From: Acidobacteriota bacterium
GTDB taxonomy: Bacteria; Acidobacteriota; JBCCFW01
DNA length: 64,000 nucleotides
Direction of reading: 5' to 3'
Assembly: GCA_039029535.1 (NCBI GenBank)
Contig: JBCCFW010000004.1
Location: 41,512-105,511 of the forward strand
Below the pieces are notes generated by a model. That model saw nothing but the letters and a program-made list of their open reading frames with translations, did not search any database and had not been told where the DNA came from. The position numbers were made by a program, and so were the translations under genes. Below, one piece after another: positions 24,449 through 41,368 of the stretch. Position 1 is the stretch's first letter; every line of letters starts with the position of its first letter.

Positions 24449-24455
24449 TCCCTCT

Positions 24456-25466
24456 TCACGACGAGGTGCTGCCGATGAGGCCTCGCGTGACCTGACCGAG
24501 GAGGCTCCGTCGCTCGACCACCAGCGAGACGGTCCCCGTCATGCCCGTGGTGAGCTCCAGGCTCGCGGGCACGGGACCGAGCGACAGGTGGGCGCGGTAG
24601 TGGCCGGTCTCGTCGTCGACGCTGCTCACGGCGACGAGCGTGGCGGAGAGCGAGCCCTGGTCGAGCAGCGAGTCGGCATCGAGCCGGAGTCGGCCCTCTC
24701 CGAGCACGCGCTGGAGGAGCCCCACCTGTCGAGGCGCGATCGTCGCCGTCGCGTGGAAGACCGCGGTCGACTGGCCCTCGGCGGAGTCCGACACCAGCGC
24801 GTGCAGCAAGGTCCCCGCCGGAGCGCGGGAGCCGAAGGACAGGTGAGCGACCCGACCGGCCGTGGCCGCCGTGACGTCGAGGTGCGCGTCACCCTCGCTC
24901 ACCGCAGCATGAGGGCCGTAGCGCTCCCGCAGCAGCGCCTCGGCGCGGGCCAGCTCGAAGCCGAGGCGTCGGCGTCGAGCCTGCTGCTCGGTGCTCTCGG
25001 CCTCCAGCCAGGCGAGCTCGGCTCGTGCGGCGTGCAGGCGAGCCAGTGCTTCGGAGAGCTCGGCTGATCGAAGCCGAAGCAGCGGCTGGCCGAGGTCGAC
25101 GCGGTCTCCGATGACGACGTGTCGTGCGTCGATCACGACGTCCTCGAAGAGCGAGTAGCGGTGCTCTCCCTCCACGCGGACGAGCTCGACGGGGAGCTCG
25201 ACCGTCCAGTCGAGGGGGATGAGGGAGCCACCGGCGACCAGCGCCACGGCGAGGAGCAGGCCCAGGCGGAGGGCGACGCGTCGGGCGCCCTGCGTGACGT
25301 CGAGGAGAGGGGAGTCCTCCTCGCGGTAGAGCTCGGTCGACTGGAGCGCGGTGAGCTCTCCCTCGGGTCGGACCTCGCCCGGAGGCGGCGGCCCCTTGCG
25401 GAGTCGGTCCGTGAGATCGACGACGGTCGATCCGGTGCCGTTCGGCGGCGAGACGGGCTCAGGCAT
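24456..25466 (-). CDS. HlyD-family membrane fusion / secretion protein
   Basis: Start at the internal ATG at 25466 (MPEPVSPP...), which overlaps the ABC-transporter TGA (ATGCCTGA). TM segment followed by a coiled-coil. The ORF-track N-terminus is an out-of-frame low-complexity artefact. Confidence 0.65.
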   Translation of the reverse strand: MPEPVSPPNGTGSTVVDLTDRLRKGPPPPGEVRPEGELTALQSTELYREEDSPLLDVTQGARRVALRLGLLLAVALVAGGSLIPLDWTVELPVELVRVEGEHRYSLFEDVVIDARHVVIGDRVDLGQPLLRLRSAELSEALARLHAARAELAWLEAESTEQQARRRRLGFELARAEALLRERYGPHAAVSEGDAHLDVTAATAGRVAHLSFGSRAPAGTLLHALVSDSAEGQSTAVFHATATIAPRQVGLLQRVLGEGRLRLDADSLLDQGSLSATLVAVSSVDDETGHYRAHLSLGPVPASLELTTGMTGTVSLVVERRSLLGQVTRGLIGSTSS

Positions 25467-27657
25467 GGGCGAGATACGCGTTGGTGAGGCTGGCATAGAT
25501 GCCGTCGTGGGAGAGGAGCTGCTCGTGAGTGCCGTCCTCGACGATGCGACCGTCGTCGAGCACGACGATGCGGTCGGCCCCGCGGACCGTGGACATGCGG
25601 TGGGCGATCGTGATGATGGTGGCCTTGGGGAAGCGCTCGTGCAGCCGGGCGGTGATCCTCTGCTCCGACTCGGTGTCCAGGACGCTGGTCGCTTCATCCA
25701 GGAGGATGATCTCCGGGTCGGTGAGGAAGAGCCTTGCGAAGGCCAGCTTCAAGCGCTGCCCGCTCGACAGGTTCCTTCCACCGTCGCTGAGGACGAAGTT
25801 GAAGCCCAGGAAGTTGCGACGCAGGAAGTCGCCGAGCTCGGCGTCCTCCATCGCCTGCTCGAGCTGCTCGAGGCTGGCGTCGGGTCTCACCTGCTGGAGG
25901 TTCGAGCGGATGGTCCCGTGGAAGATGTAGATGTCCTGCGGCAGCATCACGACCGACTGCCGGAGGAGCTGGGGGTGGTACTGCCGGAGCTCCGTGTCGC
26001 CGAGGAAGATGTTGCCCTCGTACGGATGGAGCTGGAGCAGCAGCTTGGCGAGCGTCGACTTGCCCGAGCCGTTGCGGCCCACGATGGCGAGGTGGGTGCC
26101 GGCCTCGACCTCCAGGTCGACCTCGTCGAGCACGCGGTCCGCCTCCTTCTCGGAGTAGCGGAAGGAGAGCCCCTCGATCCTCAGGTCGCCGTCCGGTCGG
26201 GTCGTGCGCTGGCTGCCGACGTCGCGAAACTCCGGCTCCTGGCCGATGAGGTCGTTCAGACGCTCGAAGGTCACGCTGAGCCCCAGCAACATCAGCCAGA
26301 GGTCGCCGAGGCTTCCCGCGCGGCTCACGACCATCATGAAGATGCTCGTGAAGGCCACGTACTGTCCGATCGTGAGCTCGCCCTGGACGGTGAGGTACGC
26401 ACCGATCCAGTACACGGAAACCTGGCTCGCCACGATCAGGCCGGACTGGAGGAGCCCGAGGCGGAGCGTGGACGTCTCCAACTCCATCGTCGAGTTCAGC
26501 GAGCGCGTGAAGAGGTGTCTCCAGTTCCAGAGACGCTGTTGCTCGATCCCGAGGATCTTGACGGTGTTGATGCCGTAGAGCGTCTCGGTGAAGCTGCCCA
26601 TCGCGTGAACGTTCGAGTGAAAGACCTTGTTTTCCAGGCTCCGAAGGCGAGGCGTGAAGACTGCCGACACGATGGTGATCACCAACACGGCCGCCAGCGC
26701 CACCGTGGCGAGGAGGGGGCTGTAGAAGAAGAGGAAGGCCGAGTAGGCGACGACCAGGAGGATGTCGAGCAGGGACTCGAGCACCGCCGGTGACAAGATG
26801 CCGGAGACCGACGACGCCTCCTGCAGGCGGTTGATGAAGTCCTCCTTCGGGTGGTCGTCGAAGTAGGACTGCCGCAGCCGCACGAAGCGATCCATGACCG
26901 CTCCGAAGAACGATCGCTCGTAGCGAGCCTTGAGCTGGATCATGAGGACGTTGCGCAGGTACTTCAGCAGGAGCTGCGTCGAGTAGACGAGGACGAGACC
27001 GAGGAGGATGGCGTGCAACAGGCGCAGGTCGTCGTCGACCAGGACTCGGTCGATGATGCCCTGGGTCATGACCGGGAGCCCGAGCCCCAGCAACTGCAGG
27101 ACGACAGTGGCGAGCAGGAGCTCGGCGAGGACCTTGCGAGCGGCGAGCAGGGGCGGCAGGTAGAACTCGCGGAGGAGACCCCACTTGCGACCACGTCGCT
27201 CCTCGATGAGCTCGAGCAGGTCGGGGTTGCGGAAGGCGTCCTCCGTCGGATCGACGGTGAACACGACGCCGTTCCAGCGAGCATGGAAACGATCCTTGCT
27301 CAGCTCATGCTCGCCGCTTCCCGGATCGATGAAGGTGATGGTGTCGTCGCCGACTCGCGTGACGACGATGAAGTGATCTCCCTGGTAGTGGGCGATGAAC
27401 GGTGCCTGCAGGTCCTGCATGCCCTCCCAGGAGGCGTGGTAACCCATGGCCTCGAAGCCGAACTTCTGAACGACTTCGGCCGCGAGGTAGAGGTTGGTGC
27501 CCTGGGCGTCGACCTGCGCGAGCTCGCGCAGCAGGTCCTGCACGTTGGTCATGCCCCAGTAGCGGAAGATCATCGCCAGGCAGGTGGTCAGACACTCGGA
27601 GCCGTCCCGCTGGAGGATCACCGGTACCGAACGTCGAGGCTTGAGCTTCGGTCTCAT
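25459..27657 (-). CDS. bacteriocin/lanthipeptide-processing ABC transporter with N-terminal C39 peptidase domain (LanT-like)
   Basis: C39 peptidase motifs QRDGSECLTTCLAM and HFIVV. Six-TM domain. Walker A GRNGSGKST, signature LSSGQRLK and Walker B ILLDEATS. ATGA overlap with the LanB gene. Confidence 0.9.
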   Translation of the reverse strand: MRPKLKPRRSVPVILQRDGSECLTTCLAMIFRYWGMTNVQDLLRELAQVDAQGTNLYLAAEVVQKFGFEAMGYHASWEGMQDLQAPFIAHYQGDHFIVVTRVGDDTITFIDPGSGEHELSKDRFHARWNGVVFTVDPTEDAFRNPDLLELIEERRGRKWGLLREFYLPPLLAARKVLAELLLATVVLQLLGLGLPVMTQGIIDRVLVDDDLRLLHAILLGLVLVYSTQLLLKYLRNVLMIQLKARYERSFFGAVMDRFVRLRQSYFDDHPKEDFINRLQEASSVSGILSPAVLESLLDILLVVAYSAFLFFYSPLLATVALAAVLVITIVSAVFTPRLRSLENKVFHSNVHAMGSFTETLYGINTVKILGIEQQRLWNWRHLFTRSLNSTMELETSTLRLGLLQSGLIVASQVSVYWIGAYLTVQGELTIGQYVAFTSIFMMVVSRAGSLGDLWLMLLGLSVTFERLNDLIGQEPEFRDVGSQRTTRPDGDLRIEGLSFRYSEKEADRVLDEVDLEVEAGTHLAIVGRNGSGKSTLAKLLLQLHPYEGNIFLGDTELRQYHPQLLRQSVVMLPQDIYIFHGTIRSNLQQVRPDASLEQLEQAMEDAELGDFLRRNFLGFNFVLSDGGRNLSSGQRLKLAFARLFLTDPEIILLDEATSVLDTESEQRITARLHERFPKATIITIAHRMSTVRGADRIVVLDDGRIVEDGTHEQLLSHDGIYASLTNAYLAHA

Positions 27658-30600
27658 GGTGCGGGTACTTCGGCGGTGACGAGTGGACGTGGTGCCTGCT
27701 CTGCGCGTGAGCGGGCGGCTCGGGAGACGTGGAGTCGATCGAGGAAGTCGTGCAAGACCAACTCGTGGGCACGCTCATGCGAGCGGACGAGACGGTTCAC
27801 GAACATGTGGAGGTAACTGACCGCCAGCTCGGTCATGGACAGGTGGCCGGCCTGCTCGTGCGCTCGCAGGCTCGGCACGATCTCGGCGAGGGCGCGCGAC
27901 CTCTCCTGGAACACGGCCATCGCATCCTTGCCCACGGTGAGCTCGGGTGCATCCAGCGCGTGCTGGACGTGCCGGCGCTCCGAGCGGTAGCGGGCCCCGA
28001 GGGGCACCCGCAACGCCCGCTCACCACCGTGCTCTCGGAGGTAACCGGCCCGCATCGAGCGGATGACGTGGTGGCGGTCCTCGATGTCAGGTAGGAGGTC
28101 TTCGAGGAGTTGCTGGATGCCGACGAGAGCGAGGCGCCAGCGCAGGTCGGCTCCCGAGCTTCCGCGGGAGAGGGCGACGAGACGCAGCACGGCGTCCGAG
28201 TCGGCATGGAAGAGCCGTTCGGACAGCTCCATCCCGTGTCGGCCACCGTAGCGTTCGAGCTCACGCTCATAGGTGTCGAGCTGCACGCGCCAGGCCAGCC
28301 CGTTCCGCAGCGGCTCGCGGAGGGCGGCGTGGAGCTGAGGGACGACGTCCGTGAGCAGGCGTCCCGGCTCACCGTGGACGCGGAGACGCACGGTGGGGTC
28401 GGGGTCCTGGAGTCGGATGAAGAACCAGCGGTCCACGACACCGTCATGCATCCAGCGTTCGACCAGAGGTCGGACGACGTCGCAGAGGAGGTCGTCGGCG
28501 CTCGCCGGCCCCGTGAAGATCCGTGCGTAGAGCCACTCGGAACCGGGAGCGAAGGTCCGCTCGCAGCCCGACAGCTCGACGCGGGGGAGCGAGGGCTCGG
28601 GTGTCGGTTCGCGACGCAGTGTCATCGGTACGAAGAGCTCGTGAACGAAGTCACCCTCCGGTCCGGTGACGGGGAGGTCGTCGAAGCCCCCCCAGTGCTC
28701 GCGAAGAACGGCTTCGTCTTCGCGCAGTAGCAAGTCGAGCAAGCTGTCGACCATCAGCTCGTTGTCGAGATCGACGAGCAGCTCGGAGTCACCACTGCCG
28801 AAGACCACGAAGCGCGGCCAGGCGTGTCGGCGACGCCACTTCGTCAACAGTCGCGGTCGCTCGTCGGGTGCGGACGTCGAGAGTCGCCGCAGGTCGTGTT
28901 GGCTCAGGCGCCAGCGAGCGAGGGAGAGAACGGTGTTCCCGAGGCACACGCGGGGCAGCGATGGCTGGGCCTCGAGCGAGCCCCAGTTCCACTGGAGCCA
29001 GCCGGCGACTCCCTGGAACTGCAGGTCGCTGAGGAAGCGATAGACACCGAGCGTGTGCGAGTCGGCAGAGTGCGCCGTGGTCAATCGAGGGACGACTTCC
29101 TTTCCGAAACGTGCCGACCGCAGGACCACGCGGTCGTCGACGACGCTCACGAGCAGGTCATCGAGCGGAATCTGATCCTGGACCGGGGCCCCGGAACGCC
29201 CGAGGAAGGGAATCTCGTGCTTCCGAAACTGCGGGCGGTGCACGACGTTGCCGTCGCGTCCCTCGGGCACGTGAACGACCTCGGCGAAGGCGGCGTCGGG
29301 GCGGAGAGCCTCCTCGCGTGCGAGGTGCTCGGCGACGTGCTCTCGCAGCGTTGCATCCCCCGTGCAGAATCGACCGAGGAGCTGGGCTCCGGACGGGCCG
29401 ACGGCCCCCTCGAACAGGAACCGGGCGTGGTCGTCCTGCCCCGAGGGAGCGAGCCGGATGCCTGCGGTGAGCGCGTCGGGGAAGGGCGGGCTCTCGGGTC
29501 GACGCAAGGCGGCGACGTCCGCGTCGCTCAGCACGAGCTCGTCCGCTCCGGAGCGTCGCCAGCGTTCGAGGATCTCGTGCAGGACGATGTCACGCGAGCC
29601 CATCTCGAGCGCCGCTCGCCCCGTGCCCGCTTCGTCATCGAGAGGCAGCCCGGCCAGTAGCGGCGAACCCGAGCTGCTCGTGGAGGAGGAGTTGCCGTAG
29701 CCGATGCCGGCCTCTTCGTCGAGCGCCTGGACCAGGGGGATCTCTCGCTCTCCGTAGCGCTCGACGAACGCGTCCCGGAAGCGGCCTAGCTCGCGATCGT
29801 GATCGAAGTCGGAGGCACCACGCAGGAACTCGAGGACGTCGGCAAGCTGGCTCGTGACGTTTTCGGAGAGCGTGGCCTCAGGTGCCGACTTGATGAGCTC
29901 GAGGTGGACGAGCGCTCGGCCGGGCGTGGGCACCGAGAGCGTTTCCAGCGTGGGCGTTAGACGGGACAGGAGCAGGCCCGGGGACGGCGTGCCGTCCCTG
30001 CCGAGCTCCCCCAGCGCGTGGTTGAGGTCGACGAGGGCCTCGTGCCAGCGTCCGCCGCCCGCGTGTTCACCGACCTGAGCGGTCAGCTCATCGAGTGAGC
30101 TAGGACCGGTCAAGCAAGGACGGAGGTCCGGGACGAGGAGCTGCTCCCTCGCCAGCTCCTCGACGTACTCTTCCGCTTCCTCCAGGTCGACGTCGGCCTC
30201 CCGTGCGAGCGAGCGCGCGAGTCGTTCTCGGGTCTCACCACCGCGCGCGTGCTCGAGCGCGGCGTCGAGGAACGGGGACGGCTCGAAACGGACGAGATGA
30301 TGGGCGCGGTTGCGGTCGCTGCCCTGGGCCTGAATGACACCGAGCTTGCCCGCGACGCGATGGAGGGTGGAGCTCGGCCGCAGCTTCGTCGTGGACACGA
30401 GCTCTGGAGCAGTGGCGAGCGCCTCGGCGATCTCCTGCACGACTGCTGCGTCGAGACGGACGTGGAGACGATGACGCGACGTCTCCGCAAGACGCAGGTT
30501 CGTTTCATCGCCGACGCGGACGACGGCGTGACCCGCGAAGAGTCCGAAGGGTGTCGCCCGCGAGGTCATGCGGGTCAGGTAGCGGACCAGCGAGCGCTCC

Positions 30601-30857
30601 ACGGCGCGACCCTGACGACTGTCCGGAGCGCGACGCCAACCTGGCAGCTCCGCGTGCAGGCTCGGCGAGGCAAGTGCGATCGCCGTGTCCACGTCTTCGC
30701 GATCGATGAACGCCGCGAGTCGATCTCGGAGCTCGCTTCGGTCGGATGAAGGAGCGTCGCCGCACCACTCCCTGAGCTCCCGGAGCGCATGTGCTGGCGT
30801 CCTCAGCACGGCGAAGCCCGAGCTTTCGAGGACGGGAGAGCGTTCCGAGGTCTTCAT
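27654..30857 (-). CDS. class I lanthipeptide dehydratase (LanB-like, glutamylation plus elimination domains)
   Basis: 1067 aa, the typical LanB size, with the N-terminal motif TPFGLFAG. ATGA overlap with the LanC gene. Confidence 0.8.
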   Translation of the reverse strand: MKTSERSPVLESSGFAVLRTPAHALRELREWCGDAPSSDRSELRDRLAAFIDREDVDTAIALASPSLHAELPGWRRAPDSRQGRAVERSLVRYLTRMTSRATPFGLFAGHAVVRVGDETNLRLAETSRHRLHVRLDAAVVQEIAEALATAPELVSTTKLRPSSTLHRVAGKLGVIQAQGSDRNRAHHLVRFEPSPFLDAALEHARGGETRERLARSLAREADVDLEEAEEYVEELAREQLLVPDLRPCLTGPSSLDELTAQVGEHAGGGRWHEALVDLNHALGELGRDGTPSPGLLLSRLTPTLETLSVPTPGRALVHLELIKSAPEATLSENVTSQLADVLEFLRGASDFDHDRELGRFRDAFVERYGEREIPLVQALDEEAGIGYGNSSSTSSSGSPLLAGLPLDDEAGTGRAALEMGSRDIVLHEILERWRRSGADELVLSDADVAALRRPESPPFPDALTAGIRLAPSGQDDHARFLFEGAVGPSGAQLLGRFCTGDATLREHVAEHLAREEALRPDAAFAEVVHVPEGRDGNVVHRPQFRKHEIPFLGRSGAPVQDQIPLDDLLVSVVDDRVVLRSARFGKEVVPRLTTAHSADSHTLGVYRFLSDLQFQGVAGWLQWNWGSLEAQPSLPRVCLGNTVLSLARWRLSQHDLRRLSTSAPDERPRLLTKWRRRHAWPRFVVFGSGDSELLVDLDNELMVDSLLDLLLREDEAVLREHWGGFDDLPVTGPEGDFVHELFVPMTLRREPTPEPSLPRVELSGCERTFAPGSEWLYARIFTGPASADDLLCDVVRPLVERWMHDGVVDRWFFIRLQDPDPTVRLRVHGEPGRLLTDVVPQLHAALREPLRNGLAWRVQLDTYERELERYGGRHGMELSERLFHADSDAVLRLVALSRGSSGADLRWRLALVGIQQLLEDLLPDIEDRHHVIRSMRAGYLREHGGERALRVPLGARYRSERRHVQHALDAPELTVGKDAMAVFQERSRALAEIVPSLRAHEQAGHLSMTELAVSYLHMFVNRLVRSHERAHELVLHDFLDRLHVSRAARSRAEQAPRPLVTAEVPAP

Positions 30858-32173
30858 GACGTCGCCTCAGCGCACGGAGAAGACAGGAGCAGGATCGCGT
30901 CCCAGGCTGGTGCGATCGAAGTCGTCGCCGCGAGAAGGGCGAGCGCGATGCCGGAGGCTCCGTTGAGGAAGCCGCTGTCGTCGTGCCATGCGAGTCGGCC
31001 GTCATCGCCTCGGTCCCAGGCGCGGTAGCCAGCAACGCCGGTTCCCGGGTGCTGCATGTCGAGTGCGAGCTCGAACCAGCGTCGTGCCGCGTCGGCCATC
31101 ACGTCGTCGCCCGTTGCATGCCAGAGGCGGTTGAACACGTGGCCGATGCCGGAAGCACCGTGGCACAGGGCGGCGTCCTCCACGCCGCTGCTCTCGCGGG
31201 TCCGCGCTGCCGCGCGTCGAGCGATCACACGCGCCTCGAGCTCCCAGTCCTGCCGGCCCGTGGCGCGCGCTGCCTGGAGCAGGACCACGCTGATGCCGAG
31301 CTCGCCGTGGCACCAGGCGAGACGAGCTGGGAGCTCATCCCTGCCGTCTCCCATGTCGTAGGGGAACACGGCGTCGGCATCGTCTTCGAGCTTGCGAGCG
31401 AGCAACCAGCTCACCGCTCCGTCGAGCAGGACGAGGGCACGGTCGCGCTCGATGTCGGCACGCACCAGCGCGCTCAGCAGGGCGGCGATTCCGGCGACGC
31501 CGTGGGCGACTCCGACACAATAGGTACCGCCGTTCGCGACGGCGTGTTCTGATGGCACCAGGTCGTTGCTCGTGAACCAGGCGAGGCCGTCGCCATGCTC
31601 CACGGCGAGCGTCTCGAGGTGGCCGAGCATCGAGCGCAGGCACGAGAACGCGCTCTCTCGAGGAAGTCGCGACAGCGCGTGGGCGCCGAAGCCGACGAGG
31701 CCTTCCACGAGGTCGTGATGATGGGGCCATGTCTCTCGCGAGAGATGTTCCGCCAGCGCGAGGTCGACGACCTCGCCGGGATCCGGAATGTCATCGAGAC
31801 CCGAGACGCGGTGAGCGAGCTGGCTCATGACGTGATCGCGGGCCCAGGCAACACCGACGAAGCCACAGTAGAGGGAGGCGGACATGGGGGTCTCGGCGAG
31901 CGCCACCACCGAACGCTCGAGTCTCGTCGCGACGGCATCTCCTGCCACCAGGCCGGGTCGAGCTGCCGAGAGATACGCGAGGGTGAGCGCGCGACCTGCA
32001 TTGCCGTCGGCCAGTGATTCGTCATCGGGACGCAATGTCGGCTCGGACAGGAGGGCGTCTGCGAGGTCACCGAGGGCGACGTTGGCTCGGACGGCGAGGT
32101 CGCCCTCCAGGACGGGAGTCCACGTGGCTGGAGTCGGGGTCGTTCGCGTTCGGCTAGCGCTGAGTGAGGTCAT
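30854..32173 (-). CDS. lanthipeptide cyclase (LanC-like)
   Basis: LanC zinc-site motifs VAHGVAGIAALL, AWCHGELG and ALCHGASGIGHV. Start assigned to the internal ATG at 32173, which is preceded by AGGAGA at 7 nt. The ATG at 32209 abuts the hairpin. Confidence 0.85.
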   Translation of the reverse strand: MTSLSASRTRTTPTPATWTPVLEGDLAVRANVALGDLADALLSEPTLRPDDESLADGNAGRALTLAYLSAARPGLVAGDAVATRLERSVVALAETPMSASLYCGFVGVAWARDHVMSQLAHRVSGLDDIPDPGEVVDLALAEHLSRETWPHHHDLVEGLVGFGAHALSRLPRESAFSCLRSMLGHLETLAVEHGDGLAWFTSNDLVPSEHAVANGGTYCVGVAHGVAGIAALLSALVRADIERDRALVLLDGAVSWLLARKLEDDADAVFPYDMGDGRDELPARLAWCHGELGISVVLLQAARATGRQDWELEARVIARRAAARTRESSGVEDAALCHGASGIGHVFNRLWHATGDDVMADAARRWFELALDMQHPGTGVAGYRAWDRGDDGRLAWHDDSGFLNGASGIALALLAATTSIAPAWDAILLLSSPCAEATS

Positions 32174-32212
32174 GCCCGGTCTCCTGGTTGGTCGGGGTGA
32201 GTGGTGCATGGA

Positions 32213-32243: not shown

Positions 32244-32259
32244 GTCCACCGCGTTCGGA

Positions 32260-32460: not shown

Positions 32461-32550
32461 GGTCAGGCTTCCTCTCATTGATTGATTCGGTCTTCGGTAG
32501 GCACGGCCGACTGAGTGCGGGTGGTGGTGCGCGTGAGCGGCCGTCGTCTC

Positions 32551-32579
32551 CCTGTACAGCTCCTCGTGCGGGACCTGAC
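32551..32579 (-). promoter_or_regulatory. conserved cis motif GTCAG-N15-CTGTACAGG, copy upstream of precursor A (about 90 nt from the ATG)
   Basis: One of four copies with identical 15-nt spacing (also 32949-32977, 36365-36393, 38731-38759). Confidence 0.5.
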
Positions 32580-32640
32580 ACGCCACCAAGCTAGTCCCGC
32601 TCGTCTCCTCGTCCTGGGAGGAGTGAGCGGAGACGCAACG

Positions 32641-32665
32641 CTCGGACCGCGGCCGCCGGTCCGAG
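32641..32665 (-). terminator. stem-loop CTCGGACCG-N7-CGGTCCGAG immediately downstream of precursor B
   Basis: Perfect 9-bp stem. Shares the CGGACCG...CGGTCCG core with the hairpin after precursor A. Confidence 0.45.
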
Positions 32666-32684
32666 CGCCACCGAGCTCACTCGA

Positions 32685-32864
32685 TCAGGCGCCGCCGCGG
32701 CAGAACCGCGACTTGCCCTTCTGGCAGCTGCAGGTCGACTTCCGCTTGGTCCCCTTGCGCTTCGGGACCGCCTCGCCTCCCTGCACGTCCTGCAGGTCGT
32801 CGGCGTCGAGCTGGCGGAGGGTGTCCTTGTTCAGGCTGAGCTTCTTCACGTCGTTGTTGCTCAT
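32685..32864 (-). CDS. RiPP precursor peptide B (paralog of A)
   Basis: 59 aa: MSNNDVKKLSLNKDTLRQLDADDLQDVQGG / EAVPKRKGTKRKSTCSCQKGKSRFCRGGA. ATG at 32864 preceded by GAAGGAA. Leader DNA is ~90% identical to precursor A while the cores diverge. Confidence 0.85.
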   Translation of the reverse strand: MSNNDVKKLSLNKDTLRQLDADDLQDVQGGEAVPKRKGTKRKSTCSCQKGKSRFCRGGA

Positions 32865-32948
32865 GATCAGTTCCTTCTGAGTGGATTGGCATTGCTGTGT
32901 TGGGGACGACGACCCACGACGGGTGCGCGGACCATCGGCCGTCACCCC

Positions 32949-32977
32949 CCTGTACAGTCAGCCGTTCGGAACCTGAC
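32949..32977 (-). promoter_or_regulatory. conserved cis motif GTCAG-N15-CTGTACAGG, copy upstream of precursor B (about 84 nt from the ATG)
   Basis: See 32551-32579. Confidence 0.5.
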
Positions 32978-32986
32978 GCAGAGTTG

Positions 32987-34354: not shown

Positions 34355-34367
34355 GACGCGATCCCGT

Positions 34368-35558
34368 TCAGTGAACCTGCTGGCCGGCGTCTCGCTGGAG
34401 CGCGCCTTCCTTCAGCAGGTAGGCGAGGGTGAGCTCGACGAGATCCGGCGCGACGCTCGAGCACGCCGCGCGGGCGTCCTGAGCGGTGAAGGCGCTCGGG
34501 CGGTCGACGAGCCACTGCACCAACGGGAGCAGCTCGGTGTCGACCTCGATCTCCGCCCCCGCGTTCGGACGCCTGACACGGAGCTTCCAGTTGCTTCCTC
34601 GAACGCCCTCGTCCCGCAGCGACTTCGACGCGTCTGCCGGCCAGTGGAAGCGCTCGCCCGAGACGCTGGCGCTCTGCAGCAGTGACTCGGCGTCGAGCCC
34701 ATCGACCACCCGAGCGAGATCGGGAAGCAAGGTGGCGAGCTCGCGCGCGAGCCGTGCCCGGGAGCGCTCGTCTCCGGCGAGTCCGAGGGGGTAGGCCCGC
34801 CACTCCGCCAGGTTTCCGAGGCGGCGGTCGAGCTCCTCGAGCACGACGTTCTTCCAGGTCGGAGGTTGCACGGTGAAGTTGAGCGCGAAGGACTCACCGG
34901 CGACACCGGTCTCGTGCCAGACCCCGCGAGGGAGGAACATGACGCTTCCCTCCCTCAGCTCGACGGTCTCGGAGTTGCGTGGCATCCGACGAGGGAGCGG
35001 CCGACGTGCGTGCGGTGGGCCGTGGTCGTCCGTGGCCTTCGCGTGGTAGCTCTCGGTCGGGTTCACGACGTGGTGATTCGGCGCGAGACGCCAGGTCTTG
35101 GTTCCCCTGAGCTGCACGTTGAAGTTCACGTCGAAGTCGTAGTGCATCGGCACGCCCAGGCTGCGCTTCGAGGCAAATGCCTCGATGGAGACGTGGTCTG
35201 GATGGACTCCGAGGTCGGCGGCGAGCTCGGCCCGGGGGGAGCGCAGCTCGGGCACCGCGTTCTCGACGTTCGTGATGTAGAGCGTGTCGCCGCGCTCGTA
35301 GAGGTCGCGAGCGGTCGCGGCAGGGACCTCGGTCTGGAATCCCTTGTCGCCGAAGATGGTCACGGGCTTGCGGAGTCTTCCGAGCAGGACTCCGAGGTCG
35401 CGCATGGCGGGTAGGGTCGCGAGCAACCCGAGGCGGTCGACGGCGCCGTGGCCCACGTGACTGACTTCGGGCCAGTGCTGCCGGAGGAAGTCACGCTTGG
35501 GCATGCCGAAGAGGGTCCGCAGTCCGAGCTTCTTGTCAGTCGAGCCGTCTCGTCTCAT
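34368..35558 (-). CDS. JmjC/cupin-4 family Fe(II)/2-oxoglutarate-dependent hydroxylase
   Basis: HxD...H facial triad context (VPMHYDFDVNFNVQLRGTKTWRL ... FLPRGVWHET). Start at ATG 35558 with a GGAGAAG SD. Confidence 0.65.
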   Translation of the reverse strand: MRRDGSTDKKLGLRTLFGMPKRDFLRQHWPEVSHVGHGAVDRLGLLATLPAMRDLGVLLGRLRKPVTIFGDKGFQTEVPAATARDLYERGDTLYITNVENAVPELRSPRAELAADLGVHPDHVSIEAFASKRSLGVPMHYDFDVNFNVQLRGTKTWRLAPNHHVVNPTESYHAKATDDHGPPHARRPLPRRMPRNSETVELREGSVMFLPRGVWHETGVAGESFALNFTVQPPTWKNVVLEELDRRLGNLAEWRAYPLGLAGDERSRARLARELATLLPDLARVVDGLDAESLLQSASVSGERFHWPADASKSLRDEGVRGSNWKLRVRRPNAGAEIEVDTELLPLVQWLVDRPSAFTAQDARAACSSVAPDLVELTLAYLLKEGALQRDAGQQVH

Positions 35559-35589
35559 GTCTCTTCTCCGTCGTGTGGTTCGTGGCGCT

Positions 35590-36321
35590 TCAGGACGCGA
35601 TGTCGGATTGGTCGAGGTGGATGACGCCGGCACGCGAGGCTGCGTGGCGACCGAGGTCCCGGCGGAGCTCGATGGGGTCGAAGGCGGAGCTCTGGCGACC
35701 GTCTCGCATGCCGCGAGGCCGCCGGTCCCACCAGTTGACGAGGAAGGTCACGCGGATGGAGCCGGCGACGTCACCGGGGTAGATCGCGTGATAGAGATGA
35801 CCCGGGAACACGGTGTAGTGATTCGAGCGGGGGAGCACGGCGACGCCGCGTGTCGGGCTGGGCGGCGAGAGCGTCTTGCCAGAGGGGTCACAGCCTTGAT
35901 CGACGATGAGCGTCGGGCCGCCGTTGCGACCCAGGTAGAACACGGACGCGACGAGCGGGTGCACCATCCGTCCCGTGTCTTCGAAGAGCTGTTCGTCCTT
36001 GTCGAAGTGAAAGCTCTTTCCGTCGGTCGTGTCTCGAACCTGGAACCACCACTCCGCTCCGATGCAACTCGGTCCCGGCCGCGCCAGCCGTCGAAGCCGT
36101 CGAATGGCGTGCTCGGGCAGGGTCGACGGTGCGCGGTCGAGCGGGTACCAACCACCCGCCCGTGAGAGCTCGTTCCGCGCGCCCCGGCGGAGGGTGCGAC
36201 GGACGTGCTCGGCGAAGCGGCGATACAGGGTCGACGGCAGCGCCGAGCGGAAGCAGCGCGTGCTCGTCACGTCGGCTCGGTGACGGGAGCGGGGCTTTTC
36301 GGCGAGGGCTCGTGACGACAT
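35590..36321 (-). CDS. putative Fe(II)/2-oxoglutarate oxygenase (prolyl-4-hydroxylase-like fold)
   Basis: HFDKDE (HxD), ~55 aa later HYTVFPGHLYH, then IRVTF (RxS/T-like). ATG 36321 with a GGAG SD. Confidence 0.45.
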   Translation of the reverse strand: MSSRALAEKPRSRHRADVTSTRCFRSALPSTLYRRFAEHVRRTLRRGARNELSRAGGWYPLDRAPSTLPEHAIRRLRRLARPGPSCIGAEWWFQVRDTTDGKSFHFDKDEQLFEDTGRMVHPLVASVFYLGRNGGPTLIVDQGCDPSGKTLSPPSPTRGVAVLPRSNHYTVFPGHLYHAIYPGDVAGSIRVTFLVNWWDRRPRGMRDGRQSSAFDPIELRRDLGRHAASRAGVIHLDQSDIAS

Positions 36322-36364
36322 GGCGAACTCCGTTGGCGAGCCAGGGATGGCTCGTCGGTAGTTG

Positions 36365-36393
36365 CCTGTACAGCGCAGCGGTCCAGCTCTGAC
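36365..36393 (-). promoter_or_regulatory. conserved cis motif GTCAG-N15-CTGTACAGG, copy upstream of the oxygenase/JmjC/kinase unit (about 43 nt from the ATG)
   Basis: See 32551-32579. Confidence 0.5.
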
Positions 36394-36402
36394 ATCGGGC
36401 GG

Positions 36403-38673
36403 TCAAGCCGACGGAGCGATGGGCATGAGCAACGCTTCGTCCCAGGTGGGCTCGTCGAGGCTGACGGCCGAGAGCAACCCGAGAACGACGCCCGAGCGTC
36501 CATCGAGCAGGCCGTTGCCGCTCAGACGTGGAGGCGTGTCGTCGGTGGGCAGGGCGAGGGTCACGGCGTGGTCGAGCCACGTTCGCGCTGCCTGCTCGAG
36601 TGAGGGGTGACCGAGGGCTCGATGCAGGCGATTGAGGGCCTGGGCGACGCCGATGGCTCCGTGGCAGGCAGAGGCCGTGTCGATGCCGGCCGACTCCGCC
36701 GAACGAGTGGCGGCGTGGAGCGCGATGTCGAGGGCGAGAATCTCCCAGCTCGACTCTCCGATCGAGCGAGCAGCCGAGAGCAGTGCGAGCGCGATCCCGA
36801 GGTCTCCCGAACACCACGATGGGCGCGACGGGGTCGGTGTCGCCCAGCCGACGAATGACGGGAATCGAGACGCCGAGCCCGGAGGAAGCTCCCGGTCGAG
36901 GAGCCACTCGATGCTCTCGAACAACAGCTCCCGTGCGGAGCCCGGTGGCTCGTCGAGCGCGCAGGCCCGGGAGAGCAGTGCGACGACGCCCGCCATCCCG
37001 TGCAGCACGCCGAGGTCGCGACGTCCCCCGCGGAAGACATGAGGTGCCTCGGGTGCGTGGCGCATGAGCGCGAGAGACCAGTCCCGCGAGCCGTTCACGA
37101 GCGAGGCCTGGTCGAGCCGCTCGATCACGTCCTCAATGAGGCTTCGTGCCGACGCACGTGACCGGCGCTCGAGGGCATGAACGCCGATCCCGACGAGCCC
37201 GCCGCGGAGATCCAACCGCCCGGTCCAAGCCTGTGAGGCGAGCGTGTCCGCGAGGGTGGCGTCGACGTCCTCCAGGCCGTCGGCTTCGTGCAGGCTCGCT
37301 TCCGAGAACCGCGAGGCGACCCACGCGACACCGGTGAAGCCGTCGTGGAGACCGATGCCCAGCGGACGCTCGGCGACTGCTTCGAGCGCGACATCGAGCC
37401 ATCGCGACGCCAGGTCGTCGTGAGCCGAGTCGATGCCGGCGCGCGCCAGCTCGAGATGGCAGAGCGCACGGCCGGCCGCACCGGTCGCCAGGGAAGCGTC
37501 GACGGACCCGGCGTCGACCGAGACGTCGGGCTCGGAGACCAGCTCGTCGGACAAGCGGGCGATCGCGTCCCAGGTCGTCTCTGCTTCCTGGCCGACGAGG
37601 AGTGGTTGCCACCCTGAGACGGGAGAGGGGCTCATCGCAGCCGGGGATGGCACGACGTCGAGCCGGGCTGCGCCGTCGCTTGGGCCTCTCGCCGTCGGTT
37701 CGAGCTCGAGCACGTGGAAGGCCCGGCAGGCGATCGGCTCGGCGCCCAGCCGCTCTGCAAGACGGAGGGTGTGTCGGTAACCGGAGAGGTGGCAGTTGGT
37801 GTCGAACCACGTGCGGGTCGCGCCTTGCTCCGCCGCACGCTCGGCGACCGCCGAAAGGAGGAGCGCGTGAATTCCCGTCCTCCTCATGTCCGGCAGGATC
37901 TCCTCGTACTCGGCGTGAACGTGCGGCCCCTTCCGGAACGCGAGCAGCACGCCGACGGCGCGGTCGTTCACGCGTGCGACGACCGAGAGGTCGCGGAGCG
38001 CGCGGTAGTCCTCGCTCAGGAGCCAGGTGCGGAAGTCGTCGCCCTTCCGGCCCAGCACGACGTGAAACAGCGACTCGAGCGAGGCGTCGGGGTCGTCCGG
38101 GAGTGGGCCGAGGCTCAGGCCGTCCGGGAGCGTTCGCCGACGGGCGATGCGCTCGCACAGCGTCGCGACGTGGGCACGGAAGTCTCCGAGGTCCACGTCG
38201 AAGCTGGCTTGCTCGAGGTCGCGGGAGAAGCCCTGCTCACGGAGGAAGGCGACGGCTCCGGGCTCCGTCGGCTGCGTCACTTCGAGAGACGTGACTCCGG
38301 CGGCCCGACCGTCCTCGCGCAGCCGCTCGAGGAGGATGCTGCCGACACCGCGCCGACGGGCGCCCTCGGCGACACGCAGCAACAGGGGCACGCGCTCGCC
38401 GACGTCGCCCCAGTAGCGAACACCGCGCGCCGCGGCGCCGACCGGTCGGCCCCCTGCTTCCGCGATGAGCAGGCCCGGCGCCCACGGGCCCAGCGGTCCG
38501 AGGTGCTCCGCGAGTTGGGCCCAGTCGGGTCGTTCCTCGAAGAGCTCCGGCAGGAGCTCTCGGAGAACGTCGGAATCGGAGCCGGTGGCTTGCCGGACTC
38601 GAATCCCCGGTTCGGCCGGTGGGATCGAGTCCGACCACGTGGTCGCTGCCTGCGTCTCGGACCTGCCCTGCAT
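36403..38673 (-). CDS. fusion protein: tandem GNAT acetyltransferase-like domains plus C-terminal LanC-like cyclase domain
   Basis: N-terminal ~330 aa with GNAT-like segments (RRRGVGSILLERL). C-terminal LanC motifs GVLHGMAGVVALL, SWCSGDLG and SACHGAIG. ATG 38673 preceded by GGAGGAAC. Confidence 0.75.
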   Translation of the reverse strand: MQGRSETQAATTWSDSIPPAEPGIRVRQATGSDSDVLRELLPELFEERPDWAQLAEHLGPLGPWAPGLLIAEAGGRPVGAAARGVRYWGDVGERVPLLLRVAEGARRRGVGSILLERLREDGRAAGVTSLEVTQPTEPGAVAFLREQGFSRDLEQASFDVDLGDFRAHVATLCERIARRRTLPDGLSLGPLPDDPDASLESLFHVVLGRKGDDFRTWLLSEDYRALRDLSVVARVNDRAVGVLLAFRKGPHVHAEYEEILPDMRRTGIHALLLSAVAERAAEQGATRTWFDTNCHLSGYRHTLRLAERLGAEPIACRAFHVLELEPTARGPSDGAARLDVVPSPAAMSPSPVSGWQPLLVGQEAETTWDAIARLSDELVSEPDVSVDAGSVDASLATGAAGRALCHLELARAGIDSAHDDLASRWLDVALEAVAERPLGIGLHDGFTGVAWVASRFSEASLHEADGLEDVDATLADTLASQAWTGRLDLRGGLVGIGVHALERRSRASARSLIEDVIERLDQASLVNGSRDWSLALMRHAPEAPHVFRGGRRDLGVLHGMAGVVALLSRACALDEPPGSARELLFESIEWLLDRELPPGSASRFPSFVGWATPTPSRPSWCSGDLGIALALLSAARSIGESSWEILALDIALHAATRSAESAGIDTASACHGAIGVAQALNRLHRALGHPSLEQAARTWLDHAVTLALPTDDTPPRLSGNGLLDGRSGVVLGLLSAVSLDEPTWDEALLMPIAPSA

Positions 38674-38730
38674 GGTTCCTCCGTCGGGAGCAGCCGCGCC
38701 AGGACGGAGCCCGGCGTTCGTCTCGCAGCG

Positions 38731-38759
38731 TCAGGACAGTGCAGGGCCAAGAACCTGAC
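38731..38759 (-). promoter_or_regulatory. conserved cis motif variant GTCAG-N15-CTGTCCTGA upstream of the GNAT-LanC gene (about 57 nt from the ATG)
   Basis: Same 15-nt spacing, and its GTCAGGTTC matches copy B. The 3' block is degenerate (CTGTCCTGA vs CTGTACAGG). Confidence 0.4.
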
Positions 38760-39117
38760 TCCAGCGTCGCGGATCCGAAATCCGCGTGCGGCACGTTCCT
38801 CTCGGAATCGTGACCACCCTCTCGGCCGGCTGACCGCGACCAAACGACGCGCGGCAATCCCGCTCAGAGGGGAAAATTCAGCCGTCTCAGCCCTTCCTGA
38901 ATTGCTGATTCACCAAATTCCAACTCTCGCTTGACCGGTCGGCTGGGTGAGCGCAATTTGTTTAGAAATTCAGTCAGGAAGGTTCAGGGGCCTGGGGCTC
39001 ACGGGGTGTTGCCAGCATCCCGACACGGACGACCCCCAACGCCGGGGGTCGTCCTGCGTCTCATGCGGACTCCCGCCCGTCGTGAGCACGCAGGATTCCG
39101 GGTCTCGAACGCAGAAA

Positions 39118-39165
39118 GACGAAAAGGGCGTGGAGTCGCCAACTCCACGCCCTTTTCATTTTTCG
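39118..39165 (-). terminator. Rho-independent terminator downstream of the Nif11-type precursor gene (bidirectional)
   Basis: 14-bp GC-rich stem AAAAGGGCGTGGAG / CTCCACGCCCTTTT with 7-nt loop. Flanked by T-tracts on both strands (TTTTCATTTTT on plus; UUUUCGUCUUUC on minus). Confidence 0.75.
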
Positions 39166-39213
39166 ATCGGCTGGTCAGCCGTTGCTCGCCTCAACGGGCG
39201 GGCAACGAGAGGA

Positions 39214-39708
39214 CTAGTTCATCCACTTGTCGAGCCAACCGGTGTCGATGCTGACCGAACCGGAGGCCGAGCCGCCGACGGTGCCGGGCTTCGTGCCGCT
39301 GACGCCGGTGTTGTTGCGGTTGGCCGCCTGGCCGGGGGCCGAGCCGCCGCCGCCCATGCCGCTGCCGACACCCATGGTGTTGCCGGCCGAGCGACGACGA
39401 ACCGCGTCGTAGACGGCGGAGGCGTCGATGGTGCCGCCACGGATGTTGCCGACCGTGCCGCCCACGCCGCCGGCGACCTGCTCGAGCATGTCGTCGGAGA
39501 GCTCTTCCGCGCTGGCCATGCGGGCCTTCAGGGCCTCACGGAGACCGGACGCGTCCTCGGCCGAGAAGGCGAAACCGTGCTTGCCAGCGACCTCGGCGAC
39601 GGAGGTGTCGACGTCCGCCGCCTCCTCGAGGGTGCGGTTCAGCTCATCCCGCAGGCCTTCGTCCTGACAGGCTTTGTTGAAGAACTCCAGGGCCTTTTCC
39701 GTGCTCAT
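39214..39708 (-). CDS. Nif11-type leader RiPP precursor peptide with Cys-free Gly/Ser/Thr-rich core
   Basis: 164 aa. Leader MSTEKALEFFNKACQDEGLRDELNRTLEEAADVDTSVAEVAGKHGFAFSAEDASGLREALKARMASAEELSDDMLEQVAGG matches the Nif11 leader family (ends LSDDMLEQVAGG). Core GTVGNIRGGTIDASAVYDAVRRRSAGNTMGVGSGMGGGGSAPGQAANRNNTGVSGTKPGTVGGSASGSVSIDTGWLDKWMN. SD GGAGGAAG. Confidence 0.8.
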   Translation of the reverse strand: MSTEKALEFFNKACQDEGLRDELNRTLEEAADVDTSVAEVAGKHGFAFSAEDASGLREALKARMASAEELSDDMLEQVAGGVGGTVGNIRGGTIDASAVYDAVRRRSAGNTMGVGSGMGGGGSAPGQAANRNNTGVSGTKPGTVGGSASGSVSIDTGWLDKWMN

Positions 39709-39888
39709 CGCGCTTCCTCCGCGGCGTGTTCCTTGGGTGGTTCGTAAACCGTGAACCAGGAGAGTACACGCTCTTCGTCACGCTGAAAAGACCTGGTCTC
39801 CAGAACGTCGTTCTTGACCGAAATCGACCACCTAGGCACCCTGAGACGGTCCTGAAGCGCCTCGAACGGGGGTCCCCTGCGCACCGGA

Positions 39889-40530
39889 TTGCTCCTCCTC
39901 ATCGGCCTGAGCCTCCTCGGCTCGACCACCCGGCCCGACCTGATCCGGGGCCGCTGCGTCCGTGTTCTCGATGGCGACAGCCTCGAGATGGAGGGCCCCA
40001 CGGGGCCCTTCACGGTGCGTCTCTCCGGCGTGGACGCCCCCGAGTGGGACCAGCCCTGGGGCCGCGCCGCCCGGGCCTGGGTCGAGGAGCTATGCGAGGG
40101 GCGGATGCTGACCCTGGACGTCGTCGACCGCGACCGGCACGGACGGCTCGTCGCGCGGGTGCGGTCGGGCCGCATCGACGTCTCCCGCAGCCTGGCCGAC
40201 GCCGGCCTGGCCTGGCACGACGAGCGGTACTCGCGCGACGGCCAGCTCCGGGACCTGGCGCGCTCGGCGCGTCGCGCCGGACGCGGGTTGTGGTCGACCT
40301 CGAAGCCGGTGGCGCCCTGGGACCATCGGGCACGTCGCTCGGCCGATGCGAGCGAGGTGGCCGAGAAGGACGCGACCACCCCGTCGGTCTTCGTTGCCAA
40401 CACGCGCAGCGGTGTCTTTCACTCCGCTTCCTGTCGGAACGCGGGCTGCCGGAACTGCCGGCGTCACTACGCCCGTCGTGCGGACGCGCTGGCTGCCGGT
40501 CATCGGCCGGCCGGCTGCTGTCGACCATGA
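39889..40530 (+). CDS. thermonuclease (staphylococcal-nuclease-like) family protein, exported
   Basis: SNase motifs VLDGDSLEM...VRLSGVDAPE. N-terminal hydrophobic segment. TTG start. Confidence 0.65.
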   Translation: MLLLIGLSLLGSTTRPDLIRGRCVRVLDGDSLEMEGPTGPFTVRLSGVDAPEWDQPWGRAARAWVEELCEGRMLTLDVVDRDRHGRLVARVRSGRIDVSRSLADAGLAWHDERYSRDGQLRDLARSARRAGRGLWSTSKPVAPWDHRARRSADASEVAEKDATTPSVFVANTRSGVFHSASCRNAGCRNCRRHYARRADALAAGHRPAGCCRP

Positions 40531-40570
40531 TGACGGTGCGGCCTCACCCCGCGCCGGCGAAGGATTGAAC

Positions 40571-41368
40571 GTGCTCGGTCAAGGTCGCGCGCCCCTGGTG
40601 GTCCTCGGTGTCACGGTGATGTCCGTGATCGGAGCTCGGCTCATGGGGGCCTCACCATCGCTGCTGATCGCAGCCGGCGTCATCGGGGCGCTCCTGGGGC
40701 TCGCGATCGTCTTCGTCCGGCGCAAGCTGCGCGAAGGTCTCACTCGCAACCTTCCCGCCGATCACCCCGAAGTCGTCGCGCTCTGCTCGCGGCTCCCGCT
40801 GCGGGAGCCCTGGCCGCGCTTCGGTGGTTGGGCGATCCTCCCGGACTTCGCCGAGCTCCTCCTCGAGCTCACGAAGGAGCGTCCCCACGCGTGCATCCTC
40901 GAGCTCGGTGGCGGTGCCTCGACTCAGGTGTTGGCGGCCGCCCTCGGCGACTCGACCCGCATCGTGTCGGTGGAAGCCGAGAAGCGCTTCGCCGACGATC
41001 TCCGCGACGCGCTCACGCACCAGGAGCTCACCGACCACGTGGAGGTCCTCGACGCAGCCATGAGCGGCACGCCGCCCTGGTACGACCGCGAGCGCGTGCA
41101 GTCGGCGGCGGAGCGACTCGGCCCCATCGACCTGCTCGTCGTCGATGGTCCCTCCACCGCGCTCGACGCGCGAGCACGTGAGCCGGCCATGCCCGAGCTG
41201 CTGAGCCGTCTGGCTCCCGACGCGACGGTCGTCCTCGACGACACGGTGCGCGAGGGTGAGCAGGCCATCGTCGAGGCGTGGCGTGAGCAGGGCCTGCTCG
41301 AAGGGTTCGAGGTGGAGCAGCGCCCGCTCGGTCGCGGGGCCATCGTGCTCCGACGTCAGTCGACCTAG
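40571..41368 (+). CDS. class I SAM-dependent methyltransferase-like protein with N-terminal TM helix
   Basis: Motif ILELGGGASTQVLAAAL (glycine-rich SAM binding) and acidic DDTV. Start assigned to GTG 40571 with an AAGGA SD (alternative ATG 40619). Confidence 0.5.
   Translation: MLGQGRAPLVVLGVTVMSVIGARLMGASPSLLIAAGVIGALLGLAIVFVRRKLREGLTRNLPADHPEVVALCSRLPLREPWPRFGGWAILPDFAELLLELTKERPHACILELGGGASTQVLAAALGDSTRIVSVEAEKRFADDLRDALTHQELTDHVEVLDAAMSGTPPWYDRERVQSAAERLGPIDLLVVDGPSTALDARAREPAMPELLSRLAPDATVVLDDTVREGEQAIVEAWREQGLLEGFEVEQRPLGRGAIVLRRQST

Follow-up and report, generated by a model that had tools for sequence, protein, structure and literature searches.

A predicted GNAT-GNAT-LanC fusion protein encoded in a class I lanthipeptide gene cluster of an Acidobacteriota bacterium

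The 64-kb stretch of DNA analyzed here (the window, ~69% GC) comes from a metagenome-assembled genome (MAG) of an uncultured Acidobacteriota bacterium and contains, on the minus strand at 36403-38673, a gene whose 756-residue product joins a tandem of GNAT acetyltransferase-like domains to a C-terminal lanthipeptide cyclase (LanC) domain. The gene belongs to a co-directional class I lanthipeptide cluster on the same strand (Table 1). The product is identical to GenBank MEM7244056.1, labeled 'MAG: GNAT family N-acetyltransferase [Acidobacteriota bacterium]', and the sequence is known from one 112-kb MAG contig only. The first-pass annotation of the window had described a single 756-residue open reading frame (ORF) preceded by a strong Shine-Dalgarno sequence. 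Both descriptions hold, as the gene is read in one unbroken, ATG-initiated frame and GGAGGA precedes the ATG by 3 nt. In this frame (frame 1), the GC content at third codon positions (GC3) is 0.72-0.95 in every window of 40 codons, including the domain junction.

Table 1 Features of the fusion gene and of the surrounding lanthipeptide cluster.
Feature	Position	Strand	Remarks
Fusion gene GNAT-GNAT-LanC	36403..38673	minus	complete 756-aa ORF, ATG start
GNAT domain 1	38227..38550 (residues 42-149)	minus	Pfam Acetyltransf_1, E 2.9e-17; AlphaFold2 model
GNAT domain 2	37699..38127 (residues ~183-325)	minus	Pfam Acetyltransf_6 at 230-287, E 2.3e-6; AlphaFold2 strands and helices 186-323; Foldseek
Linker	37639..37698 (residues 326-345)	minus	PTARGPSDGAARLDVVPSPAA up to Met346; 20 residues between GNAT module and LanC
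ATGA at Met346	37635..37638	minus	retained LanC start codon overlapping TGA in the +1 frame
LanC cyclase domain	36406..37638 (residues 346-756)	minus	Pfam LANC_like PF05147 at 391-749
Shine-Dalgarno GGAGGA of the fusion gene	38677..38682	minus	3 nt before the ATG at 38673; sequence read directly
Cis motif copies	32551-32580, 32949-32978, 36365-36394	minus	two upstream of preA2/preA1, third before the 243-aa gene
Weakly HlyD-like protein	24456-25697	minus	
LanT-type exporter	25459..27657	minus	C39 peptidase, ABC membrane and ATPase domains; predicted to cleave at the GG site
LanB dehydratase	27654..30857	minus	Lant_dehydr_N and Lant_dehydr_C
Stand-alone LanC (LanC1)	30854..32209	minus	37% identical to the fused LanC domain
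Precursor A2, 66 aa	32260..32460	minus	leader MTKNNVKKLVLNKDTLRQLDADELQDVQGG, core VAVPKSKRKSTCGCTKCKKRGCGSARQAETGEDFGL; candidate substrate
Precursor A1, 59 aa	32685..32864	minus	leader MSNNDVKKLSLNKDTLRQLDADDLQDVQGG, core EAVPKRKGTKRKSTCSCQKGKSRFCRGGA; candidate substrate
APH-family phosphotransferase-like gene	32987-34354	minus	between fusion and precursors
JmjC/cupin oxygenase gene	34368-35633	minus	between fusion and precursors
243-aa protein	35590..36321	minus	HxD...H pattern (FHFDKDE ... HAIYPG); directly downstream of fusion, cis motif in front
Nif11-leader precursor, 164 aa	39214..39708	minus	Pfam Nif11 and TIGR03798; directly upstream of fusion
Terminator hairpin, 16-bp	39121-39157		after the Nif11 gene; strong, T-runs on both strands

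Domain architecture of the fusion protein

The fusion ORF is predicted from sequence matches and structure models to have a GNAT-GNAT-LanC architecture in one polypeptide. Pfam assigns Acetyltransf_1 to residues 42-149, Acetyltransf_6 to residues 230-287 and LANC_like to residues 391-749, all above the gathering scores. Together with structure prediction, a fold search and an alignment of LanC homologues, these assignments confirm the two GNAT segments and the complete LanC domain of the first-pass annotation.

AlphaFold2 and Foldseek support a tandem GNAT fold for the N-terminal part. When the full-length protein was modeled with a multiple sequence alignment (MSA) of LanC sequences only, the N-terminal half had a predicted local distance difference test (pLDDT) score of 30-50. 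Prediction of this part was repeated with an MSA of 94 tandem-GNAT homologues and yielded a pLDDT of 81, with two consecutive GNAT β/α units spanning residues ~24-161 and 186-323, so that the module as a whole covers approximately residues 24-325. The top Foldseek matches in the Protein Data Bank (PDB) are all tandem GNATs, namely VipF (5e-17), MAB_4324, 3TT2 (template modeling score 0.67), the clavulanate CBG protein and MshD; Eis-type enzymes are found further down the list. An NCBIfam match of GNAT1 to the RiPP (peptide made by ribosomes and modified after translation) N-acetyltransferase HaaN is weak (E 7e-4) and far below the cutoff. Identity with MshD, the mycothiol synthase, was considered and rejected. 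The fold match to 1OZP/2C27 is generic, ranking 14-16 with 13-15% identity, MshD is found neither by the PDB sequence search nor among the NCBIfam matches, and the neighboring genes are lanthipeptide genes. The 'mycothiol synthase' names carried by GNAT homologues are automatic JGI labels.

The two GNAT domains differ in the coenzyme A (CoA)-binding motif Q/R-x-x-G-x-G/A, which domain 1 fits and from which domain 2 departs at the last position. The P-loop of GNAT1, R106-R-R-G-V-G111, equals the consensus RRRGVG(S/T) of the 94 homologues. In GNAT2 the corresponding segment reads R264-R-T-G-I-H269, the sole sequence among the 94 homologues with a histidine at the final G/A position. Column statistics over the same homologues show GNAT2 substitutions at four near-invariant family positions (T257E, R266T, A/G269H and K273L). 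These changes weaken the case for a conventional C-terminal catalytic domain.

The LanC domain matches PF05147 over profile positions 3-350 of 350 (E 6.2e-29, 101 bits versus a cutoff of 23.2), is modeled with pLDDT >90, and retrieves 8BYK and NisC (2G02) in a PDB sequence search. The three zinc-site motifs noted in the first-pass annotation are present as GVLHGMAG (residues 555-562), SWCSGDLG (619-626) and SACHGAIG (668-675). Of the 54 alignment columns with at least 90% conservation across 39 outside LanCs, 49 are retained in the fused domain and 50 in the stand-alone LanC1 of the cluster. Residues D488, H558, R617, C621, C670 and H671 are kept in such columns and correspond to the acid/base residues and zinc ligands of NisC (C284, C330, H331, H212 and D141). 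The substitutions in the fused domain include Y499H, A557L and Y622S, the last of which turns the WCYG motif into WCSG. The Y499H change, at a tyrosine that is at least 90% conserved, is common to both LanC copies (30854-32209 and 36406-37638), and the tyrosine of WCYG is likewise replaced in both, by histidine in LanC1 and by serine in the fusion. Tyrosine replacements common to the two copies suggest an adaptation of the active-site surroundings that is specific to this cluster.

Since both halves keep their core residues (the GNAT1 P-loop, and the LanC Asp/His/Arg residues and Cys-Cys-His zinc site), a bifunctional enzyme is plausible. Alternatively, one half may be non-catalytic, either with the GNAT module serving as a scaffold or substrate-recognition element for a second cyclase, or with the LanC domain only docking the leader for an active GNAT. 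The departures in GNAT2, usually the catalytic half, point in this direction, as do the unusual divergence of the fused LanC with its replaced Tyr622 and Ala557, and the presence of a canonical LanC1 in the cluster. However, the GNAT1 P-loop is perfectly conserved and the zinc and acid/base residues of the LanC domain are all kept, along with the great majority of conserved columns. The Y499H and Tyr622 changes, being common to LanC1, indicate cluster specificity rather than decay. Moreover, NpuN, a tandem GNAT whose N-terminal domain carries the P-loop and whose C-terminal domain is divergent, has the same P-loop pattern and is an experimentally active lanthipeptide lysine acyltransferase (PMC13060382). 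We regard loss of catalysis in one half as unlikely.

Rarity and possible origin of the fusion

An exhaustive HMMER search of 1.84 billion representative proteins returned 5,583 matches, and the conclusions drawn from it rest on the best 150. Among these there is no other GNAT-LanC fusion, and all 149 besides the query align only to residues ~330-756. They are stand-alone LanCs of 366-503 residues, the closest scoring 237 bits at 42% identity, with one exception. This exception, P0079 (721 aa), is among the nearest LanC relatives and carries a LanD-type Flavoprotein domain (PF02441) fused N-terminally to LanC. A word-indexed protein search proved too insensitive for this low-complexity, high-GC protein, as the whole sequence returned itself only; residues 1-350 gave one weak match, a 299-residue stand-alone tandem GNAT (P0151; 33% identity, E 2.9e-5). 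A profile search detected 113 tandem GNATs, most of them ~300 residues long and none with a LanC domain.

Three genomic contexts of GNAT homologues were inspected and none is a RiPP cluster. A homologue in Hyalangium adjoins genes for an Orn/DAP decarboxylase, an aminotransferase and an MFS protein, and another adjoins a second tandem GNAT and glutamine synthetase genes. Thus, two of the three contexts suggest small-molecule amine metabolism, and the homologue beside the Orn/DAP decarboxylase may act on a diamine that resembles a lysine side chain.

At the genome level, the 80 best LanC loci from 185,579 species-representative genomes were considered; the majority belong to Thermoanaerobaculia and other Acidobacteriota, and the set also includes Myxococcota. 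None of the 80 matches query residues below 319, and a GNAT ORF lies within 8 kb in only one of them. Homologues of the JmjC, APH-like, 243-aa and Nif11 genes of the cluster are absent from all 80. At eleven loci (L013, L035, L047, L048, L049, L051, L053, L062, L063, L076 and L082), the majority again in Thermoanaerobaculia and other Acidobacteriota, the LanC match extends over 2.2-3.0 kb. These wide matches may represent two adjoining LanC genes, in which case paired LanCs may be common in the lineage.

A metagenome scan with the fusion found no relative, and a scan with the tandem-GNAT profile found 30 loci, none of them beside LanC or LanB. Searches of the open-access literature found no description of a GNAT-LanC fusion or of an acetyltransferase domain on LanC, which does not prove that none exists. 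Acetyltransferases are mentioned solely as class IV cluster neighbors in a survey that covered the lanthipeptide clusters of more than 100,000 genomes (PMC7268733). With no other fusion among the protein matches listed, the loci or the metagenomes, the combination is apparently unique. It appears to be a new combination of two well-known enzyme types, apparently confined to one MAG, rather than a new kind of system.

The junction suggests how the two parts were joined. The DNA at Met346 reads gcgATGAgc, and the +1 frame (frame 2) runs without interruption from codon 263 to a TGA, which shares bases with the ATG of Met346. Met346 lies exactly 8 residues before W354, and stand-alone LanCs begin ~8 residues before the conserved W-x-P-L-L. 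At the other end of the linker, stand-alone relatives of the GNAT module extend a few residues past the equivalent of residue 325. An ATGA at the retained LanC start, combined with an open +1 frame, looks like two coupled genes merged by a one-base change. This suggests, as judged from the sequence, that a tandem GNAT gene and a following LanC gene were once coupled through the ATGA overlap and became one gene when a one-base frameshift arose in the 3' part of the GNAT gene.

The same features would be expected if a 1-nt indel error in the MAG contig had merged two separate, translationally coupled genes, the true products being a tandem GNAT of ~345 residues ending at the TGA of the ATGA and a LanC of ~410 residues starting at Met346. 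Met346 is located exactly where stand-alone LanCs begin, the stand-alone tandem GNATs of the family end a few residues beyond the linker start, any single-base indel in the 20-codon linker yields the two-gene arrangement, and the sequence is carried by one contig only. In contrast, the frame-1 GC3 of 0.78-0.83 continues through the linker, and the internal ATG is not preceded by a Shine-Dalgarno sequence. The A following this ATG is expected by chance in about 1 of 6-7 cases at this GC content. Furthermore, the other large genes read in the window are all intact and none looks frameshifted, which argues for a low indel error and makes an error within just these 60 nt improbable a priori. An artefact of this type is accordingly given a low probability. 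Even if it were true, the pairing of GNAT and LanC in an operon would remain, and such adjacency was likewise not seen elsewhere.

The surrounding lanthipeptide cluster

Besides the fusion gene, the cluster encodes a dehydratase, a stand-alone cyclase, an exporter and several candidate precursors (Table 1). LanC1 carries the motifs GVAHGVAG, AWCHGELG and ALCHGASG. The first-pass annotation had placed it next to the fusion; it does belong to the same cluster, but is separated from the fusion by 4.2 kb of DNA that contains three genes and two precursor genes.

Precursors A1 and A2 have leaders that share ...LNKDTLRQLDAD(D/E)LQDVQGG and are GG leaders of neither the NHLP nor the Nif11 type. Their cores bear out the cationic character ascribed to them in the first-pass annotation, being strongly Lys/Arg-rich with many lysines, and contain 3 and 4 cysteines. 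Both carry AVPK at positions 2-5 after the GG site, preceded by different first residues (E and V). Only one related precursor was found elsewhere (L059 7719-7973), with a leader of similar type, KKLVLNRETLRELTQDDMAQVEGG, and a non-cationic core, NGVKPFTKGNMCDFTSGSASGDPCACC. The leader family is thus generic, and the cationic cores are particular to this cluster. The third candidate, the Nif11-leader precursor, has a GG site after ...EQVAGG and an 83-residue core that is Gly/Ser/Thr-rich, contains 2 lysines and no cysteine, and ends in ...IDTGWLDKWMN. Without cysteine, this core cannot form lanthionines on its own.

The genes between the fusion and the short precursors suggest additional tailoring, in that the JmjC, APH-like and 243-aa proteins may hydroxylate and possibly phosphorylate the Lys/Arg-rich cores. 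The 243-aa protein has no family match. For AviCys, a family of cyclases with a kinase fold is known (PMC12291118); a LanD gene and a C-terminal cysteine are absent here.

The sole motif found repeating across the cluster, GTCAG-N~18-CTGTACAGG (30 nt), occurs exactly three times in the 64 kb, always on the minus strand, where each copy lies upstream of one of the two short precursor genes or of the 243-aa gene at a distance of 44-91 nt. The first-pass annotation had assigned the fusion a copy of its own, which does not hold, as the 540 nt in front of the gene (38674-39213) are free of the motif. The third copy instead occupies the stretch 9-38 nt downstream of the fusion stop codon and precedes the 243-aa gene by 44 nt. 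As a non-sigma-70 promoter or a regulator site, the motif may place the two precursor genes and the 243-aa gene under common control. Scans for sigma-70 promoters (36200-39900) and Rfam families (24000-43000) found none.

Elsewhere in the window, an ABC system lies at 4393-9139. Divergent from the cluster and upstream of the Nif11 gene (39889-41368, plus strand) are genes for a staphylococcal-nuclease-like protein (SNase, E 6.7e-18) and a Methyltransf_24 protein, whose ORFs overlap as listed with the longest possible starts. A run of paralogous, secreted-looking proteins on the minus strand (12433-21068) is unrelated to the fusion; two of them have AlgX SGNH-like domains, and the run also holds two very large proteins with sialate O-acetylesterase (SASA) domains and thrombospondin type 3 repeats.

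Proposed function and relation to known systems

The fusion may be a genuine bifunctional cyclase/acyltransferase, a tailoring enzyme of the class I lanthipeptide pathway that acts on leader-bearing cationic precursors. This is the reading we tentatively favor from its sequence, the models and the analogy to selidamide enzymes, and we give it a little less than an even chance. Selidamide GNATs acylate Lys or Orn near the core N-terminus of leader-bearing precursors in a leader-dependent manner, in lanthipeptide biosynthetic gene clusters that have GG leaders and C39-ABC exporters (PMC8784127, PMC13647313). An N-terminal tailoring enzyme on LanC also has a precedent in the flavoprotein-LanC arrangement of P0079.

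In the proposed mechanism, LanB would dehydrate Ser/Thr residues of the leader-bearing precursors. The fused LanC would then bind a precursor and close some of the thioether rings, the work being divided with LanC1, for example by one precursor or ring subset each. The tethered tandem GNAT would use acyl-CoA to place an acetyl or longer acyl group on a lysine ε-amine of the same bound substrate, with GNAT1 presumably providing the CoA site and the divergent GNAT2 probably forming the groove for the acceptor peptide, as proposed for NpuN. The likeliest target would be the lysine of the AVPK segment common to both cores, and acylation would precede leader removal by the C39-ABC exporter. The first-pass annotation had suggested cyclization coupled to acetylation of either the N-terminus or lysine side chains; of these, side-chain acylation appears the most plausible and N-terminal acetylation less likely.

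Several observations weigh against a bifunctional tailoring enzyme. GNAT2, with its non-canonical RRTGIH P-loop and four changed near-invariant positions, could have lost transferase activity, and the C-terminal domain is the catalytic half of most characterized tandem GNATs (PMC13060382). The fused LanC is more divergent than LanC1, with best outside matches of 237 and 356 bits, respectively. The likeness to NpuN is at the level of fold and architecture, the sequence similarity not being significant. A frameshift error within the 20-codon linker would give exactly this ORF, and one example on a single MAG contig gives no means of demonstrating that the fused state has been selected for. Finally, the acyl donor, the acceptor and the order of steps are all inferred.

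N-terminal capping would assign the GNAT module a different target, the α-amine of the core after leader removal, as reported for paenibacillin and the N-acylated class III lipolanthines, while LanC would still act as a cyclase. GNATs that modify RiPP N-termini exist (PMC13060382, PMC13647313), and the weak match of GNAT1 to HaaN is in line with such a role. However, apart from the C39 domain of the exporter, no leader protease was seen in the cluster. C39-ABC transporters couple cleavage to export, so that the free N-terminus would arise where a cytoplasmic enzyme could not reach it. Leader removal probably awaits export, so the N-terminal amine would not be free in the cytoplasm. In addition, fusion to a leader-dependent cyclase suggests a leader-bearing substrate, and the cores differ in their first residues yet both contain many lysines. 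The location of the leader protease in the exporter and the selidamide precedent thus favor the lysine side chain over the N-terminus, and we consider capping improbable.

A role in self-protection, the resistance function that the first-pass annotation had offered as an alternative, seems similarly doubtful. In this case, acetylation of lysine amines would inactivate mature or imported cationic peptide in the cytoplasm of the producer, by analogy to aminoglycoside acetyltransferases or Eis, and LanC would be a binding module for the cyclized peptide. GNATs in natural-product clusters can confer self-resistance (PMC13060382), Eis-type enzymes are among the distant fold matches, and no dedicated LanI/LanFEG immunity genes were recognized in the cluster. 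In the LanC domain, however, the full set of catalytic and zinc residues is preserved, something that a module for binding alone would not require, and the window contains the ABC system described above. Lanthipeptides also generally act at the cell envelope and not in the cytoplasm. It is very improbable that the fused LanC, instead of or besides closing intramolecular rings, acts in the manner of eukaryotic LanCL enzymes and adds a small thiol such as free cysteine to LanB-made dehydroamino acids (with the Cys-free core of the Nif11 precursor encoded directly upstream as candidate substrate), and that the tethered MshD-like tandem GNAT then acetylates the cysteinyl amine, so that the ribosomal peptide would carry N-acetylcysteinyl, mercapturate-like adducts.

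Provided that the fusion is real and active, a bifunctional cyclase/acyltransferase would represent a new way for RiPP pathways to couple tailoring to ring formation, in which the acyltransferase borrows the substrate binding of a leader-dependent cyclase rather than evolving its own recognition. A novelty less radical than thiol addition of the LanCL kind would be the first class I lanthipeptides with lysine side-chain acylation or lipidation, carried out by a covalently coupled cyclase-acyltransferase. Side-chain acylation would then extend from class II (selidamide) to class I pathways, and to the Acidobacteriota, a phylum with few characterized natural products. With a portable enzyme of this type, gene-encoded, Lys-rich cores might be turned into acetylated or lipidated lanthipeptides. 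The junction, with its retained start codon and ATGA, would also offer a clean snapshot of two coupled genes becoming one multidomain enzyme.

Compared with class I LanCs such as NisC (PDB 2G02, PF05147), the fusion has the same full LanC domain with the Asp/His/Arg residues and the Cys-Cys-His zinc site, in the same setting of LanB, precursors and a LanT exporter. It carries in addition a 345-residue N-terminal tandem-GNAT extension, seen in none of the 149 best relatives or the 80 loci. The nearest sequence relatives of residues 1-330, and the nearest folds, are stand-alone tandem GNATs of ~300 residues (VipF, MAB_4324, CBG and S. thermophilus 3TT2, with an MshD-like architecture). Motif A of domain 1 is identical to that of this family, whereas domain 2 of the fusion departs at near-invariant positions; a LanC domain is present in none of the 113 family members, and the three contexts inspected are not RiPP clusters.

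The selidamide enzymes KspN, PhaN and NpuN (nostolysamide) resemble the fusion in their tandem-GNAT fold, N-terminal P-loop and divergent C-terminal domain. Their systems also appear alike, at least in part, in the lanthipeptide cluster, the GG-leader precursors (including Nif11-type ones), the C39-ABC exporter and the Lys/Arg-rich core ends. For direct comparison, NpuN (L084:6513-7400) was recovered from plasmid pNPUN01 via its precursor. Membership of the fusion in the selidamide family was rejected, as the comparison with NpuN gave nothing significant (BLASTP E 0.35, hhalign probability 9%), and only the analogy is kept. With regard to the precursors, the Nif11 type is represented upstream of the fusion by a peptide with a Cys-free core and 2 lysines, and the Lys-rich precursors have short non-Nif11 GG leaders; the short cationic precursors thus differ from those of selidamide systems in lacking NHLP or Nif11 leaders. 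The selidamide enzymes, moreover, are stand-alone proteins that work with class II LanM, whereas the GNAT module of the fusion is covalently tied to a class I LanC.

In its overall layout the fusion is analogous to LanM, LanKC, LanL and P0079, in which a C-terminal LanC-like domain is covalently joined to an enzyme of the same pathway. An acyl-CoA transferase tethered to LanC was not previously seen in the searches of proteins, genomes, metagenomes and open-access literature. The partner domain carries out dehydration in LanM, LanKC and LanL and is a LanD-type flavoprotein in P0079; in the fusion it is a predicted acyl-CoA transferase.

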